IMG/VR virus record: IMGVR_UViG_2698536505_000016
DNA: 8,503 nt
Source: a virus
Taxonomy: Monodnaviria; Loebvirae; Hofneiviricota; Faserviricetes; Tubulavirales; Inoviridae
Reading direction: 5' to 3' (one strand)
Part shown: piece by piece, positions 1 to 8,503 of the stretch
How positions within the stretch are numbered: position 1 is the stretch's first letter
Layout of the letters: each line of letters begins with the position of its first letter
Translations under genes and position numbers: made by a program
The notes under the pieces: generated by a model
The model's database searches: none
Told to the model about the DNA's origin: nothing
Seen by the model: only the letters and a program-made list of their open reading frames with translations

Positions 1-3
1 ATT

Positions 4-36
4 GGTGCGCATAATGTACGACTCGTTATGTTGAAA
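4..36 (+). other. dif-like XerC/XerD recombination site (candidate attP arm)
   Basis: GGTGCGCATAATGTA at 4-18 matches the XerC arm and start of the central region of E. coli dif (GGTGCGCATAATGTATATTATGTTAAAT, from memory); TTATGTTGAAA at 26-36 resembles the XerD arm TTATGTTAAAT (9 of 11), displaced by about 5 extra central nucleotides. Confidence 0.55.
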
Positions 37-75
37 AGGCCGCTGCGAAAATCGAATCCCGCAGCGGCCTCTTTA
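37..75 (-). terminator. Hairpin with 11-bp GC-rich stem; probable intrinsic terminator of the minus-strand operon, possibly bidirectional
   Basis: AGGCCGCTGCG (37-47) pairs with CGCAGCGGCCT (60-70), 12-nt loop; on the minus strand the stem is followed by TTTTC, and it lies just 3' of the ORF ending at 101. Confidence 0.5.
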
Positions 76-100
76 GCATAACGTCATTGTGCGAACCAAT

Positions 101-580
101 TTATATAGAAATGAAAAACTCCTCTTCATTTCTTCTTTTATAATTGTCATCCCATATGAGTTTTATTCGGTATTTAGTTTTACTTCCAAAGCTTATTCCC
201 GCTAAAATTTCAATTCCATGTTGCGGGTGTAATACCTCATATGGAAATTTATCTTCTACATCATGCATTGAAAGATATTCATTTCCATCGTTATCAGGGA
301 AATGAATCTCTATATTTTTAGCCTCAACTCTCCCTCTATTAAATATCTTGAGCCTATAGTTGTTTTTGGCTATTTTTACGAGGCGAGCACCAAGCTCAGC
401 TTTCATCTCATTAATTGCTGACTTTGTTTCTTTTTCCAGAAGCAACTTACGTAACCTGTCTTGCTCATCCTTTATAACCTTTTGTTCTCTATCGCTTTTT
501 CTCGATTTCATTTCTGACGATATGATAGTGTAAATCGATACTACAAGCGCAGCTAAAGCGATGGCATCACTTGTTGTCAT
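101..580 (-). CDS. Hypothetical membrane-anchored protein, 159 aa: N-terminal TM helix, charged coiled-coil-like segment, C-terminal domain of unknown function
   Basis: ATG at 580-578 overlaps the upstream stop as TAATG; AAGGA Shine-Dalgarno 7 nt upstream; hydrophobic N-terminus AIALAALVVSIYTIISS followed by a K/E/R-rich segment; AT-rich coding sequence by eye. Confidence 0.65.
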   Translation of the reverse strand: MTTSDAIALAALVVSIYTIISSEMKSRKSDREQKVIKDEQDRLRKLLLEKETKSAINEMKAELGARLVKIAKNNYRLKIFNRGRVEAKNIEIHFPDNDGNEYLSMHDVEDKFPYEVLHPQHGIEILAGISFGSKTKYRIKLIWDDNYKRRNEEEFFISI

Positions 581-855
581 TATTTGATCCTTATATTCTT
601 ACTTCCCTTAAATGCCTTTTTGAGCATGTCGTTAAACTGTTTTTGAATGTCTTTTGTTAACTCTTCTTTTATTTCATCTACATGAGCGTCAATACTCACC
701 CCGTTTTCTTGGATTAACTCATCATTAGTAAATTCTTTCCCGCAGCCTACACATCTAACGACTTCAGACTCTTCCTCGTGTTCCATCTCTGTATTTCCGC
801 ACACAGGACATAGCAGGGTAATGTTTCTATTGTATTTCTCAGGATTCAGTTTCAT
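580..855 (-). CDS. Small zinc-ribbon protein, 91 aa, with a CPVCG...CVGCG motif resembling YgiT/MqsA-type zinc fingers
   Basis: ATG at 855-853 with GAGAGGA Shine-Dalgarno 5 nt upstream; two CxxC pairs 19 residues apart; stop overlaps the start of the downstream gene. Confidence 0.65.
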   Translation of the reverse strand: MKLNPEKYNRNITLLCPVCGNTEMEHEEESEVVRCVGCGKEFTNDELIQENGVSIDAHVDEIKEELTKDIQKQFNDMLKKAFKGSKNIRIK

Positions 856-883
856 ATGTTTCCTCTCTTCTACGTTTTATTGA

Positions 884-1306
884 TTACCAGTAATATGAAT
901 TTCTTCTGTGCCACCAATAAAGCAGGCCATATCCGACAATAAGAATCCCGAAGAACATCAGAGACATTCCCCAGCCAGTTCCATACCACGAAACCATATC
1001 ATCGAAAACCAGCCCACCCGTTTCACGAACTCCGGCAGCTTCCTTAAGAATTGGCTTGAATACCGGAATCAGAAGGGCGATCGCCAGTGGAGCACCCCAG
1101 CGAATAAGGCCAGTTTCCATTTTGATCCCGAAAAAGATCCCCGCACCGACAACAAGCAGCCAGACTATCAGGCCAGGCGCAGTTTCCAGTGCTGTTTGCC
1201 ATTCAACATCGAAAGTTTTCATTAGCCAGGCAACAACTGCCAGACAGAAAGCAAATACGCCTACAACAACCAGTTCAACGCCGCTTGTTTCGTTATTTCT
1301 ACTCAT
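884..1306 (-). CDS. Hypothetical integral membrane protein, about 140 aa, four predicted TM helices
   Basis: Internal ATG at 1306-1304 with AAGGA about 8 nt upstream; four hydrophobic stretches; the longer reading from 1453 would run through a hairpin and overlap the upstream gene. Confidence 0.55.
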   Translation of the reverse strand: MSRNNETSGVELVVVGVFAFCLAVVAWLMKTFDVEWQTALETAPGLIVWLLVVGAGIFFGIKMETGLIRWGAPLAIALLIPVFKPILKEAAGVRETGGLVFDDMVSWYGTGWGMSLMFFGILIVGYGLLYWWHRRNSYYW

Positions 1307-1339
1307 CCTTTTGATCCTTTGTTGCTGTTCAAAATCCGC

Positions 1340-1377
1340 ACAATAAAGAACGTGCAGTGTAGGTAATACTGCACGTT
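1340..1377 (-). terminator. Hairpin plus T-rich tract between the regulator gene and the membrane-protein gene; terminator or attenuator
   Basis: Perfect 8-bp inverted repeat CGTGCAGT (1351-1358) / ACTGCACG (1368-1375) with 9-nt loop; followed on the minus strand by TTCTTTATTG. Confidence 0.4.
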
Positions 1378-1394
1378 TGTACCATTCGTGGTAC

Positions 1395-1577
1395 TTAATC
1401 CTTTTGTTTGGCAGACATGAGATCTTCTGCTGCATCTTTAGAGTAGTTATCAATCAGATAACCTAAAATCTCTGTCCATGTAATTGTTTTTCCTAGTTTT
1501 ACACTGGCATTTATAGCCAGTCGTTCTAGTTTCATTTTTCTTTCTTCCGTCACGTTATAAGTCGTGCGCTTTGCCAT
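1395..1577 (-). CDS. Putative small DNA-binding regulator, 60 aa, ribbon-helix-helix-like (candidate phage repressor)
   Basis: ATG at 1577; N-terminal short beta-strand-like segment (RTTYNVT) followed by two predicted helices, the pattern of Arc/MetJ/CopG regulators; transcribed divergently from gII. Confidence 0.45.
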   Translation of the reverse strand: MAKRTTYNVTEERKMKLERLAINASVKLGKTITWTEILGYLIDNYSKDAAEDLMSAKQKD

Positions 1578-3620: not shown

Positions 3621-4931
3621 ATGAGAAGGAAAATATTAATTCTTTCCGCTGTCCTCATTTCTCCTTTTTCACATGCTGAGTCATGGGAAAGCATTACTAA
3701 ATCCACTTATCAAAGTTCTGCCTACGCTGAAAGTAAGCAAATAACCAATCAGGATGGCTCTAAGATAACGGTTTACTATATTGATGCTGCTATGCAGGCC
3801 TCCGCTTGTCAGGGTGCTAAATCCAGTGCTCAGAGTGTATTTACTCGGATTAAACCAACTTATGAGGGTATCTGGCCTGATTCTGAATTCCGTCTTGTTT
3901 TTACTGGCGATTGTACTTACAGCGATTCACCAGGGCAGAAGGATAAATATTGGTCTTTAACGGCTTATATTGTTGGTAATATTCAGCGTTCTGTTCCTGA
4001 TGAAAAACCTACTGACCCGACACCAGAAGAAATTTGTGAAGCGAAGCCGCCAGAAGAAGGTGTATTTAATAATGTTGATTCATATGATGGTGGTCGCTAT
4101 ATCTACTATAACGGCTGTGAATATGAGGCTACTGGTGTCATTGTTTGTCAGGGTGATGGTACTGTTTGCGCTGCAACATGGAAGCCTACAGGTGCTGTAG
4201 CTGACCCCTCTGATAAACCCTCACCCCCCCAAAATGGTGGTGGTGAGTCCGGCGGTGGTGAGTCCAGCGGTGGTGAGTCCGGTGGTGGTGAGTCCGGTGG
4301 TGGTGAGTCCGGTGGTGGTGAGTCCGGCGGTGGTGAGTCCGGTGGTGGTGAGTCCGGCGGTGGTGAGTCCGGTGGCGGTAGTTCTGGCGGTGGCTCTAGT
4401 GGTTCCAGTCTTTCTAAAGGTGATATTCAGTCTGCGATCGAAGGTGCTTCACCCAAAATAGCCAGCGATATTCATGATAAATTAACGGAGAAAGACACTT
4501 CATCAGATGATAAAAAAAATGCCGATGAACAAACCAGGAATAATATAAATCGTCTTGACGATTCCATTAACAATCTTACGCGGGGGGCTGGCCGTTTTGC
4601 TGACCCTTCAGGTGGTGATTCTCGTTATGGAAAGGGCGACTCTGAATTAGATGGCGCTTCTACTTTAGCTGATTCTGAATTGGGAATTGAAAAGGATTCT
4701 CACGGTGCTTTATGGGAAGCATTTTTAAATAAAGGTGCTATGCTGCCTAATTTACCCAATGGTAACGGCTGCTCTGATTTTATTATTTTTCCCGGAGAGA
4801 TTTATCAGATTGATATTGGTTGCGATAAATTACTGACTATTAAAGATGTTCTTTCATGGGTTTTTTATTGCCTTACGTTCTGGTATGTCTTTACTTCTTT
4901 AACTTCATTGCTTCGCAAAGGGGGTGAGTGA
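3621..4931 (+). CDS. gIII: Adsorption/minor coat protein pIII, 436 aa: signal peptide, Cys-containing N-terminal domains, (GGGES)n linker, C-terminal membrane anchor
   Basis: ATG at 3621 after the terminator (track start 3477 overlaps gVIII); C-terminus ...[36 protein letters not shown] resembles the M13 pIII anchor; glycine-rich linker typical of pIII. Confidence 0.85.
4236..4400 (+). repeat. Tandem 15-bp repeat array inside gIII, about 9 near-perfect and 2 degenerate units, encoding (GGGES)n
   Basis: GG(T/C)GGTGGTGAGTCC repeated head-to-tail from 4236 to 4370, in frame with gIII, then two degenerate units to 4400. Confidence 0.9.
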
Positions 4932-5272: not shown

Positions 5273-6367
5273 ATGGCGGTTTATGTAGTAACAGGCAAAT
5301 TAGGCTCAGGCAAGACACTTGTTAGTGTTTCCAGAATACAGGAAAGACTTGCTAAGGGTTGTCCTGTTGCCACTAATCTTGATCTTAAATTGCATAATAT
5401 GCCTATGGTTGGGCGTTATGCGAAAAAAACGCGCGTTATTCGCATTCCTGACAAGCCTTCATTAAATGATTTACTTGCTATTGGTATTGGGAATACATCT
5501 TACGATGAATCCCGTAATGGCCTCCTTGTACTTGATGAATGTGGTACTTGGTTTAATTCCCGCTCATGGGGTGATAAAGACAGACAACCTGTTATTGACT
5601 GGTTTTTACATGCCAGAAAATTAGGCTGGGATATTATATTTTTGATTCAGGATATTTCGATAATGGATAAGCAAGCTCGTCTGGCGCTTGCTGAGCATGT
5701 TGTTTATTGTCGCCGTTCAGATAAATTAAACATTCCTTTTGTTGGCTCCATTATGAATTTGGTTTCAGGGGCGAGATTTTCTTTACCAAAGGTACACTTT
5801 GGCATTGTCAAATATGGTGATAATGTTAATTCAATCACTGTTGATAAATGGATATATACAGGAAAATCTCTTTATTCTGCTTACAATACCAAACAAGCGT
5901 TCACAGATAATTATCCTCATGGCGCATTTTCGCTTTTGCCACCATTTATCACGCACGGTCAATTTTCTGTTCACAGAGGATTTAGTTATTATATGCGCCT
6001 CACTAAAATTTATTTTCGCAAATCGAACCGTCTTATATTAATGCTTTCTTTTTTGGCGCTGGGGCTTGCGTTTGGTTTCTGGCTCCAGTCTGGAAAGAAT
6101 GTTGATGAAATCTCAGCTATTAAATCTGCTTATGCTGAACAGGCGAGGGCGGTAACGCCTGATTCGTCCAGTGACTTACCCCGACTTTCTATTAATTCTT
6201 TTTCACAACTTGGCTTTGACGTTTCCGTTACGTTTGTTGATGCAAAAGGCATGAAATATCAGTATTTTGATTTGATTAAAGATGGTTATTCCGTTGATAT
6301 TAAAGATGCCTGTCGTGTTGTTATTAGAAAAGGCCGTTATTTACAGACTGTTACCTGTCAGGAGTAA
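5273..6367 (+). CDS. gI: Assembly ATPase pI (Zot-like), 364 aa, Walker A GKLGSGKT
   Basis: Start abuts the gVI stop; N-terminal about 160 aa is highly similar to M13 pI (MAVYFVTGKLGSGKTLVSV..., LLVLDECGTWFN..., AEHVVYCRR...). Confidence 0.95.
   Translation: MAVYVVTGKLGSGKTLVSVSRIQERLAKGCPVATNLDLKLHNMPMVGRYAKKTRVIRIPDKPSLNDLLAIGIGNTSYDESRNGLLVLDECGTWFNSRSWGDKDRQPVIDWFLHARKLGWDIIFLIQDISIMDKQARLALAEHVVYCRRSDKLNIPFVGSIMNLVSGARFSLPKVHFGIVKYGDNVNSITVDKWIYTGKSLYSAYNTKQAFTDNYPHGAFSLLPPFITHGQFSVHRGFSYYMRLTKIYFRKSNRLILMLSFLALGLAFGFWLQSGKNVDEISAIKSAYAEQARAVTPDSSSDLPRLSINSFSQLGFDVSVTFVDAKGMKYQYFDLIKDGYSVDIKDACRVVIRKGRYLQTVTCQE
5993..6367 (+). CDS. gXI: Candidate pXI: in-frame internal start at Met241 of pI
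   Basis: ATG at 5993 is Met241 of pI, the same position as the pXI start in M13, immediately before the predicted TM segment (MRLTKIYFRK...). Confidence 0.45.
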   Translation: MRLTKIYFRKSNRLILMLSFLALGLAFGFWLQSGKNVDEISAIKSAYAEQARAVTPDSSSDLPRLSINSFSQLGFDVSVTFVDAKGMKYQYFDLIKDGYSVDIKDACRVVIRKGRYLQTVTCQE

Positions 6368-6374
6368 TATTATT

Positions 6375-7640
6375 ATGCGCTCTGTTATTGTTGCTTTTTT
6401 ATTTGCCTGTTCATTCTGCGTTTCTGCTGAAACTGTTAATTTAAATAATTCATCTGTTCGCTCATTTGTTCAGTGGTATTCTTCAAAAACTGGCAAGCCT
6501 GTTATTGTTAATCCTGATATTAAAGGAAACGTAACCGTATTTAATGCTGATGTTAATCCAACAAATATTGATGATTTCTTTAAGTCTGTTCTGAATGCTA
6601 ACGGTTTTGTCATGCTTTCTGGCAATCCTGCGGTAGTCTCTTTGCCGTCTAAATTACCTTCACAGATGGTTTCGGATTCCGATGATTCTGATAACCAGTC
6701 TTATGATACTTTTCCTTCTGAGCCATCTTACCAGCCAGTACCTGTGGCGCTTACGGTCAGAAATTTTAAGCTGACAAAAGTTAGATCGTCCGATGTTCAG
6801 CAACTGATTAAAATTTATCTTGATTCTAATGGTGGTGGTAATGTCGTGGATTATCCAGGCAATAACTCGCTGATTGTTTCTGCGCCTGACGAGCTGCTGC
6901 CGGTTCTGTCCGATTTTATCAATTCTGTGGATGTTGCCCGCGATCAGGTTCTCATTCAGTCGCTGATGTTTGAAACCAGCTTGTCTGATGGCGTTGATTT
7001 ATCGTTTGCGGCAGGTTCTGCATCCGGTCATAAGGTTGCGGGGGGCTTTAATACTTCTGCACTGGGTAGCGCTCTTTCTACGGCGGGCGGTTCTTTTGGT
7101 ATTTTTGATGGTAACGTGTTGGCGCTGTCTCTGCGTGCTGTCCAGAGTAATTCACGCTCTAAGGTGATTTCAACGCCGCGTATTCTTACTCAGTCTGGTC
7201 AGACTGGTTACATTTCCGTAGGTAAGAATGTGCCGTTTATCACCGGAAAGGTAACGGGCGAATCTGCCGGGGTAAATAATCCGTTTCAGACTATCGAGCG
7301 TCATGATGTTGGCGTTTCTCTCAAGGTAACGCCTGTTGTCATGGGTAACGGGCAACTAGTTCTGACTATCGACACTCGCGCTGATTCAATCAGCAATGAT
7401 GATCAGGCATCCGATATTATTACTAATCAGCGCCAGATTCAGACGACAGTCCAGATTAAGGATGGTCAGACGTTGTTATTGGGAGGGCTTATCGATTCAT
7501 CGTTAAGCAATGCCGAGCGTTCAGTTCCAGTTATAAGTAAAATTCCTCTTATAGGCTGGATTTTCAGTAGCAAGGCAGACAGCAATGAACAGCGTATTAT
7601 GTATATTTTGCTTACAGCACATATCATTCGTCCACTTTGA
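6375..7640 (+). CDS. gIV: Outer-membrane secretin pIV precursor, 421 aa
   Basis: ATG at 6375 with GGAG at 6361-6364 (track start 6282 overlaps gI); signal peptide MRSVIVAFLFACSFCVSA; long conserved stretches match M13 pIV (e.g. PRILTLSGQ.G.ISVG.NVPFITG.VTGESA.VNNPFQTIER, TLLLGGL, KIPLIG). Confidence 0.95.
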   Translation: MRSVIVAFLFACSFCVSAETVNLNNSSVRSFVQWYSSKTGKPVIVNPDIKGNVTVFNADVNPTNIDDFFKSVLNANGFVMLSGNPAVVSLPSKLPSQMVSDSDDSDNQSYDTFPSEPSYQPVPVALTVRNFKLTKVRSSDVQQLIKIYLDSNGGGNVVDYPGNNSLIVSAPDELLPVLSDFINSVDVARDQVLIQSLMFETSLSDGVDLSFAAGSASGHKVAGGFNTSALGSALSTAGGSFGIFDGNVLALSLRAVQSNSRSKVISTPRILTQSGQTGYISVGKNVPFITGKVTGESAGVNNPFQTIERHDVGVSLKVTPVVMGNGQLVLTIDTRADSISNDDQASDIITNQRQIQTTVQIKDGQTLLLGGLIDSSLSNAERSVPVISKIPLIGWIFSSKADSNEQRIMYILLTAHIIRPL

Positions 7641-7709: not shown

Positions 7710-8018
7710 ATGGATTCTTATGGGATTTTATCTGCTCTGGCAGAACGAACGATTACAGCGGAAGAAGCAAAAACAATGACACTTGCAGCCAGAAGTTCTT
7801 CGGCTCAGGTAAATGAAGCATCACTTGCTCTGTTACTGATTGATAATACTCTGGATGCGATCAAAGCAGCTGCCAGTGAAGGGAAAGGATACACTTTACT
7901 TCCTTCTTATGAGATTTCTGTAAAAGCCATTGATTTAGCAGAAGAATTTTTAAGGAAACAATGCGGCTATGTTATTGATAACCAGAATGGCGTAAGGACG
8001 GTCTATTGGTTTATATGA
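7710..8018 (+). CDS. Hypothetical protein, 102 aa, predicted mostly helical, no recognised motif
   Basis: ATG at 7710 with a weak G-rich Shine-Dalgarno; lies between gIV and the att region where Ff phages have only non-coding sequence. Confidence 0.5.
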   Translation: MDSYGILSALAERTITAEEAKTMTLAARSSSAQVNEASLALLLIDNTLDAIKAAASEGKGYTLLPSYEISVKAIDLAEEFLRKQCGYVIDNQNGVRTVYWFI

Positions 8019-8135: not shown

Positions 8136-8369
8136 ATGCAATTTTTCACATCCAGCGATACTGTAATGTTATGTGCGAAGACCTGCGATCGCTGTGGTCG
8201 CCATGCGAAGACGGTGGTAGATGACATTGAGTTCAATGAGTTTCTGTCTGTTAATCACTTAGCTGGATACGGTTCAATTTTTGGTGACAGTAATCGCTTA
8301 AAACTGGATTTATGCCAACATTGCCTGAAAGACGTCCTGGGCCAGTGGATTACGGTCTGTGACCAATGA
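8136..8369 (+). CDS. Hypothetical small cysteine-rich protein, 77 aa, putative zinc-binding
   Basis: Strong GAGGAG Shine-Dalgarno 5 nt upstream of ATG at 8136; CxxC pairs at residues 17/20 and 61/64; followed by the att hairpin. Confidence 0.55.
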   Translation: MQFFTSSDTVMLCAKTCDRCGRHAKTVVDDIEFNEFLSVNHLAGYGSIFGDSNRLKLDLCQHCLKDVLGQWITVCDQ

Positions 8370-8407
8370 CGGCACCGGTAACGCCAGTTCCCGCCATCCT
8401 TACCATT

Positions 8408-8440
8408 GGTGCGCATAATGTACGACTCGTTATGTTGAAA
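8408..8440 (+). other. dif-like XerC/XerD recombination site, second copy
   Basis: Same sequence as 4-36. Confidence 0.55.
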
Positions 8441-8479
8441 AGGCCGCTGCGAAAATCGAATCCCGCAGCGGCCTCTTTA
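8441..8479 (+). terminator. Same hairpin, second copy, downstream of the 8136-8369 ORF; candidate plus-strand terminator
   Basis: Identical stem-loop followed by TCTTT on the plus strand; located about 70 nt after the stop at 8369. Confidence 0.35.
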
Positions 8480-8503
8480 GCATAACGTCATTGTGCGAAC
8501 CAA

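Follow-up and report, generated by a model that had tools for sequence, protein, structure and literature searches.

In-frame length variation of the pIII linker repeat in filamentous prophages of Escherichia coli, beside homopolymers with no sign of length switching

Gene III is the most variable gene of the UPphi group of filamentous phages: Shapiro and Putonti (Virus Evolution 2020; PMC7307601) recorded 95 protein variants in 229 genomes, which differ mostly in GGGES copy number. GGGES copy-number variation in gene III of this phage group is thus already published. The same paper cites Bruno and Bradbury (1997, Gene 184:121) for the IKe linker, whose length changed naturally and in the laboratory with, as summarised there, no observed fitness effect or selective advantage. 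The f1 cryo-EM map does not resolve the glycine-rich linkers, flexible tethers proposed to let several pIII copies reach the pilus (PMC10175506).

Here we treat gene III of one such phage, using 'the window' for the whole 8503-nt stretch of DNA that was analysed. A sequence-only reading had pointed to a tandem array of 15-bp units in this gene, with a C7 tract upstream and an A8 tract downstream, and had proposed that together they make pIII a hotspot for length or phase variation. The length part of that proposal holds for the array; the phase part, which depends on the homopolymers, does not. Across related phages, where repeat number and tract lengths were both expected to vary, the array varies and the homopolymer tract lengths are invariant.

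On its architecture and on the GGGES-repeat pIII described in PMC7307601, we assign the window to a UPphi-type, IKe-like, dif-integrating filamentous prophage of E. coli. It has an exact 99-nt terminal direct repeat (1-99 = 8405-8503) and therefore holds a single genome unit of 8404 nt with a redundant end. The repeat starts with ATTGGTGCGCATAATGTA, the first 15 bases of dif, with the XerC-side half GGTGCGCATAATGTA; beyond that half come a divergent centre, a TTATGTTGAAA arm and then a GC-rich hairpin, GGCCGCTGCG...CGCAGCGGCC. Presumably this repeat is the phage attP. The full 28-nt E. coli dif is absent from the window with up to 3 mismatches allowed and the XerC-side half alone is kept, which fits the dif-like site described in PMC7307601. 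This terminal element, over ~95 nt, also has matches in plasmids of Klebsiella, Pantoea and Citrobacter.

The window is 98-99.6% identical to prophages lying beside hipBA, in the dif region, of 47 complete E. coli genomes, often in tandem. The prophage adjoins hipBA in UM146, 1434 and HUM3355, and is tandem in 1434, HUM3355 and EC5502. Two ORFs follow gIV on the plus strand (7710-8018 and 8136-8369) and three run in reverse (101-580, 580-855 and 884-1453), with matching annotation in UM146. The window thus has what marks UPphi viruses, namely a dif-like start with dif integration often in tandem, and an IKe-like core with two extra post-gIV genes and reverse ORFs. Whole-window megablast against GenBank phages returned nothing beyond a 190-bp match in gIV, to IKe and PEar phages; that collection has no phage record for it. 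Its identity was established from E. coli chromosomes and from PMC7307601.

Several features of these prophages are recorded here in their own right. Many that are 99% identical cover just 86-91% of the window, the region of the reverse ORFs being replaced by other cargo (a death-on-curing family toxin, an STM4504/CBY_0614 family protein or a PD-(D/E)XK nuclease); the region at window positions 1-1500 is an exchangeable accessory module beside the dif-like site. EC5502 (L002, NZ_CP092647.1) carries 15-17 prophage copies in one chromosome, apparently as a long tandem array across the record origin, and its assembly is probably noisy in the prophage region. In strain 1434 an ISEcp1 transposase is inserted in gene IV (secretin) of the second tandem copy (L073, 19861-21123). 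A 7938-bp Salmonella enterica 'plasmid' (NZ_CP140410.1) essentially equals this phage at 99.2% identity and is probably its replicative form, and in E. coli KE48 (NZ_CP141085.1) the prophage is on a 385-kb plasmid instead of at the chromosomal dif.

The pIII protein is 52-54% identical to the pIII of IKe, I2-2 and the Erwinia PEar phages over 83-86% of its length (tblastn, phage records). In UM146 the RefSeq name of the orthologue is 'attachment protein' and its neighbours are the major coat protein and a pVI-like DUF5455 protein, which places gene III between gVIII and gVI as expected for a G3P of the IKe/Lineavirus type. PDB entry 4eo0 (Attachment protein G3P) matches residues 20-128 (E=3e-26). 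The solved 4eo0 chain aligns from residue 20, from which residues 1-19 are presumed to be the signal peptide. The N1-type region has, besides its match to 4eo1, a Pfam hit to PF05357 (Phage_Coat_A) at residues 135-176 (25.6 bits against a cut-off of 20.8) and matches to the fd/f1 N1 structures 1g3p, 2g3p, 1tol and 8b3o. We take 4eo0 to be the IKe pilus-binding domain and 4eo1 the IKe TolA-binding domain. A second matched stretch of pIII aligns with f1 pIII in cryo-EM entry 8b3o (f1 virion tip), and the C-terminal 19 residues of the translation are hydrophobic.

The protein therefore reads, in order, as signal peptide, pilus-binding domain, short Pro-rich hinge, TolA-binding domain, Gly/Ser/Glu linker (residues 206-262) and C-terminal cap and anchor domain. 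With a pilus-binding domain, an N1-type domain, and a glycine linker followed by a C-domain, it is classed from its sequence as a G3P of the IKe/Lineavirus type. The identification of the gene as that of the adsorption protein, and of the array as the linker between receptor-binding and anchor domains, is borne out by PF21443, PF05357, 4eo0 and 4eo1. Direct reading also finds the C7 tract, the A8 tract and the nine 15-bp units within gene III exactly where they had been placed (Table 1).

Table 1. Coordinates of gene III, its domains and its repeated tracts in the window
Feature	Position	Strand	Details and basis
Gene III (attachment/adsorption protein pIII)	3621..4931	+	436 aa + stop; ORF and translation
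N-terminal pilus-binding domain	3678..4004	+	aa 20-128; PF21443 G3P_pilus-bind, E=2.4e-25, aa 22-125
TolA-binding (N1-type) domain	4008..4205	+	aa 130-195; PDB 4eo1, E=4e-25
C7 homopolymer just before the linker	4224..4230	+	codons TCA CCC CCC CAA, Ser-Pro-Pro-Gln; direct reading
Nine near-identical 15-bp units, (G/S)GGES; hypervariable part of the linker	4236..4370	+	direct reading; codon 206 starts at 4236
Degenerate linker end	4371..4409	+	two GGGSS units + GSS, 13 residues
C-terminal domain (virion cap, membrane anchor)	4410..4928	+	alignment with IKe and I2-2 pIII reaches residue 434 (tblastn)
A8 homopolymer in the C-terminal domain	4512..4519	+	codons AAA AAA AAT, Lys-Lys-Asn; direct reading

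In PEC422 (L024) gene III lacks its normal C-terminus, the frame running on for 575 aa into foreign sequence, and is annotated as incomplete; a rearrangement or insertion, and no change in a homopolymer, accounts for this loss. A UPphi gene III of 92% identity appears in a 'Candidatus Nanosynbacter' Patescibacteria MAG (L048, JARKOR010000214.1), where it is almost certainly a binning contaminant from an enterobacterium.

The array of the window consists of units GGTGGTGGTGAGTCC and GGCGGTGGTGAGTCC, plus one AGCGGTGGTGAGTCC, which vary solely in the first codon (GGT, GGC or AGC) and encode eight GGGES and one SGGES. Written as a unit string it is 'abcaaabab', then def, a combination absent from every other copy examined. 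TRF reports 4239-4393 with period 15, 10.3 copies, 90% matches and a score of 238, and a separate repeat search gives the same 15-nt register. Such an array is far beyond chance, and its head-to-tail, near-identical units in multiples of 3 nt are those of a coding VNTR. An ORF of 75 aa in the +1 frame (4234-4461, +) also runs through the array; it was set aside as a by-product of the periodic sequence, with no sign of coding.

The segment 4100-4650 was searched by megablast against 5426 complete E. coli genomes, of which 48 matched. Matches covered between 443 and 626 bp (551 in the window), with 23 distinct values in the 48 genomes, all of them congruent with 551 modulo 3, that is, in frame. 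The claim that unit gain or loss stays in frame and alters linker length is thereby upheld. For linker parsing one genome per length class was fetched; among the parsed E. coli copies the array measures 74-257 bp and pIII 400 to 461 aa.

Parsing separates three variable linker modules: (GGGES)n of 15 bp, (GGSS)m of 12 bp, and a 10-residue repeat k of 30 bp. GGGES-type units occur in about 1 to 10 copies in relatives (9 in the window). The 12-bp GGSS module expands at the degenerate linker end of relatives, in 0-5 copies (units d, h, e and f). A second sub-lineage has alternating 10-residue, 30-bp units that terminate in GGGFS. In the related lineages of Salmonella, E. ruysiae and Izhakiella the linker is built of (GGGDT)n, and in IKe and I2-2 it mixes GGDT, GGST and GGSS units. 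Different units homogenised in each lineage are what ongoing concerted evolution of a slipping repeat is expected to produce.

The array changes fast relative to substitution in its surroundings. Among genome pairs with 0 differences across 1590 bp of flanks, 23 of 24 have differing arrays, a fraction inflated by the choice of one genome per length class; an unselected sample partly corrects for this, with 20 distinct arrays in 27 copies not picked by length (IMG/VR, metagenomes and viromes, and GTDB representatives). Two BH100 substrains, MG2014 and MG2017, show 0 substitutions in 3.5 kb and are one 30-bp double unit apart. Within a single genome, the two tandem prophage copies of strain 1434 are exactly one 12-bp GGCGGTAGTTCT unit apart. 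The three tandem copies of HUM3355 have identical arrays, so the array is not altered at every replication. In protein terms, a handful of RefSeq accessions covers the major coat and pVI-like proteins of nearly all the genomes that were fetched, whereas the pIII accession differs in most; two clusters of pIII at 90% identity hold 165 and 682 distinct member sequences. Frequent in-frame length variation of the linker among near-identical prophages is thus strongly supported, and copy number is polymorphic among close relatives with conserved flanks, the second mark of a VNTR.

We read the array, with a probability of roughly 0.85, as a fast-evolving and probably near-neutral coding minisatellite that encodes the pIII tether, with whole units gained and lost in frame and the homopolymers incidental. 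In pIII this linker connects the receptor-binding part at the N-terminus, made up of the pilus-binding domain followed by the TolA-binding domain, to the virion-capping C-terminal domain. Units would be gained and lost by strand slippage at replication, or when repeats or tandem prophage copies recombine unequally; the direct repeats alone suffice to explain the instability of the array, and G-quadruplexes or hairpins in the G-rich viral strand need not be invoked. Since the unit lengths of 15, 12 and 30 bp are multiples of three, every unit event stays in frame. A disordered tether may tolerate a wide span of lengths, and this, together with the summary of the IKe study in PMC7307601, suggests near-neutrality.

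A different account of the same variation is that linker length is under diversifying or tuning selection, the number of units adapting the reach of pIII to pili and envelopes, or its antigenicity, as an evolvability device. Rapid, reversible change of tether length through three independently expanding modules (15, 12 and 30 bp) would then be a selected device that tunes the reach of the receptor domains. Depending on the conjugative pili and the enterobacterial host, this would alter how well or how widely the phage infects; alternatively, it would change antigenicity in the human gut and urinary tract. We consider both the general account and this specific form of it unlikely. In their favour, pIII is the most variable protein of the phage and its variation is concentrated in the linker, and the phage is found in several host genera, each in our data as in PMC7307601; the range of GGGES-type copy number is wide; and the UPphi authors, who suggest IncI pili as the likely receptor, consider that the variation may relate to host specificity and, in what they say of the IKe study, note that host range was untested there (PMC7307601). 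Against this, the data seen hold no association of length with host or source, genomes with identical flanks (from humans, chickens and different countries) having many lengths. High mutational input explains the pattern by itself, and the in-frame character of the changes is guaranteed by the unit lengths and hence is no evidence of selection. The IKe work also found no fitness effect, as it is cited in PMC7307601.

The array comparison rests on assemblies, in which tandem repeats can be collapsed or mis-assembled, and the copy-number differences might accordingly be artefacts of short or noisy reads over the repeat. The assemblies of EC5502 and 1434 are indeed noisy, with frameshifts in many prophage genes, and the BH100 difference is one between two assemblies of a single strain. 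However, arrays of just 74-257 bp are spanned by long reads, and identical complex arrays recur in independent projects: 'glbdmdmdn' is common to Combat2C1, L030 and L031, and 'gbdhef' to 1368KP, L036 and L048. The UPphi authors, moreover, saw the same variation in their own isolates (PMC7307601). We therefore regard artefact as a very improbable source of the variation.

The homopolymers behave differently from the array. C7 and A8 are the longest C run and the longest A run of the window. Under a first-order Markov model of the window, 0.44 A runs of at least 8 and 0.07 C runs of at least 7 are expected; for runs of at least 7 of any base, the window has 4 where about 5.9 are expected. Homopolymers are thus no more frequent than chance predicts.

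The C tract is C6 (TCA ACC CCC CAA, S-T-P-Q) in all 54 related arrays parsed, with no length variant among them. The C7 of the window is therefore an A-to-C substitution at 4224 (Thr to Pro) and not a product of slippage, and this Thr-to-Pro change was found in no other copy examined. The A tract is A8 in 27 of 27 parsed E. coli copies, in 11 IMG/VR or GTDB copies and in 14 metagenome copies (52 in total). A query bearing A9 found no perfect match at 104 places in the 48 E. coli genomes; A7 alleles were judged from the reading frame, which is kept at the 48 best places, and from the directly read copies. More distant relatives have A5-A7 with Lys-Lys kept, and no C run. The view of the two tracts as slippage sites accordingly fails, A8 being invariant in reliable copies and C7 having arisen by substitution.

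Two IMG/VR contigs do carry +1 frameshifts at the A tract or next to it: L045, from IMG taxon 2740892487, has A9, and in L046, from metagenome 3300045988, A8 is followed by one additional G. We rejected them as cases of A-tract slippage because the same contigs carry 1-nt indels at other long homopolymers (in L045 one base more in the A7 tract at 5423 and again in the T6 tract at 6395, in L046 one base fewer at 5423), and indels at several homopolymers across three different essential genes at once are a signature of sequencing error. The tandem copies of EC5502 were likewise rejected as a homopolymer test, nearly every gene there being annotated as frameshifted in an assembly too noisy for the purpose. 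As a separate observation, one contig of the (GGGDT)n lineage (L047, IMGVR_UViG_2695420487_000001) has a frameshift at about codon 152, in the TolA-binding domain (between …FNNVY and LMMV…), with the remainder intact in another frame.

Both tracts are in-frame mononucleotide runs at which a change of length switches frame, and a +1 or -1 shift at either would, as computed, leave a truncated pIII of 208-308 aa; the claim that single-base slippage truncates pIII is right in this sense, but nothing indicates that it occurs. Tract-length polymorphism of the ON/OFF kind among close relatives was absent from all reliable copies. That C7 and A8 are phase-variation switches, at which one-base slippage reversibly truncates pIII and so toggles virion-competent and defective states or yields a periplasmic N-terminal fragment, is the least credible of the readings, for the lengths of the runs, the computed products and the two frameshifted contigs are outweighed by A8 in 52 of 52 directly read copies, A9 in none of 104 complete-genome copies, a kept frame in 48 of 48 best-place spans, C6 in 54 of 54 relatives, the error pattern of L045 and L046, the lack of conservation of either tract in distant relatives, and run counts at or below chance. 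Both tracts are incidental, arising from the codons for Pro-Pro and Lys-Lys-Asn, and nothing suggests that their length switches.

Independent data thus confirm the UPphi pIII linker as a fast-evolving coding minisatellite, a result that matters little beyond housekeeping; the array is a real but ordinary, known coding minisatellite. Our additions are modest: the three-module anatomy, examples of change within a strain and within a genome, and a clear negative for homopolymer phase variation, which removes the more exciting idea of a phage adsorption protein that varies in phase. For UPphi prophages the linker array could serve as a typing marker of high resolution. Caution is called for when clustering gene III, building gene III phylogenies or calling pIII 'variants'. 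Should linker length tune host range, the array would offer a simple model of tether-length adaptation in phage receptor binding, relevant to phage-display engineering.

Among known systems, the homopolymer and SSR contingency loci of bacterial pathogens resemble gene III in having mononucleotide runs in a surface-protein gene where a one-base change would truncate the product; they differ in their defining ON/OFF tract-length polymorphism among close relatives, which was tested here and is absent. The pIII of IKe (and I2-2) is alike in having pilus-binding, TolA-binding, Gly-rich linker and C domains, with the linker in the same position and of similar length (residues about 205-261), and unlike in its overall identity of 50-54% and in linkers that are degenerate GGDT/GGST/GGSS mixtures rather than identical GGGES runs. 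IKe and I2-2 do not integrate, unlike the window phage. The UPphi viruses (UPphi901 and relatives) share the IKe/I2-2-like gene set, the dif-like genome start, the reverse accessory ORFs and dif integration that is often tandem; the UPphi paper (PMC7307601) differs from the present work in having neither a dissection into separate 15-, 12- and 30-bp modules nor an examination of homopolymers. In Ff phages (M13/fd/f1) the linkers G1 and G2 of pIII, (EGGGS)n and (GGGS)n, likewise join the N-terminal domains to the C domain as flexible Gly/Ser/Glu tethers and are disordered in cryo-EM (PMC10175506), and the TolA-binding domain is homologous by PDB search. Ff pIII, however, has a pair of linkers and its N-terminal domains the other way round (TolA-binding N1 ahead of pilus-binding N2), whereas the window pIII has a short Pro-rich hinge between its N-terminal domains and one long Gly linker.
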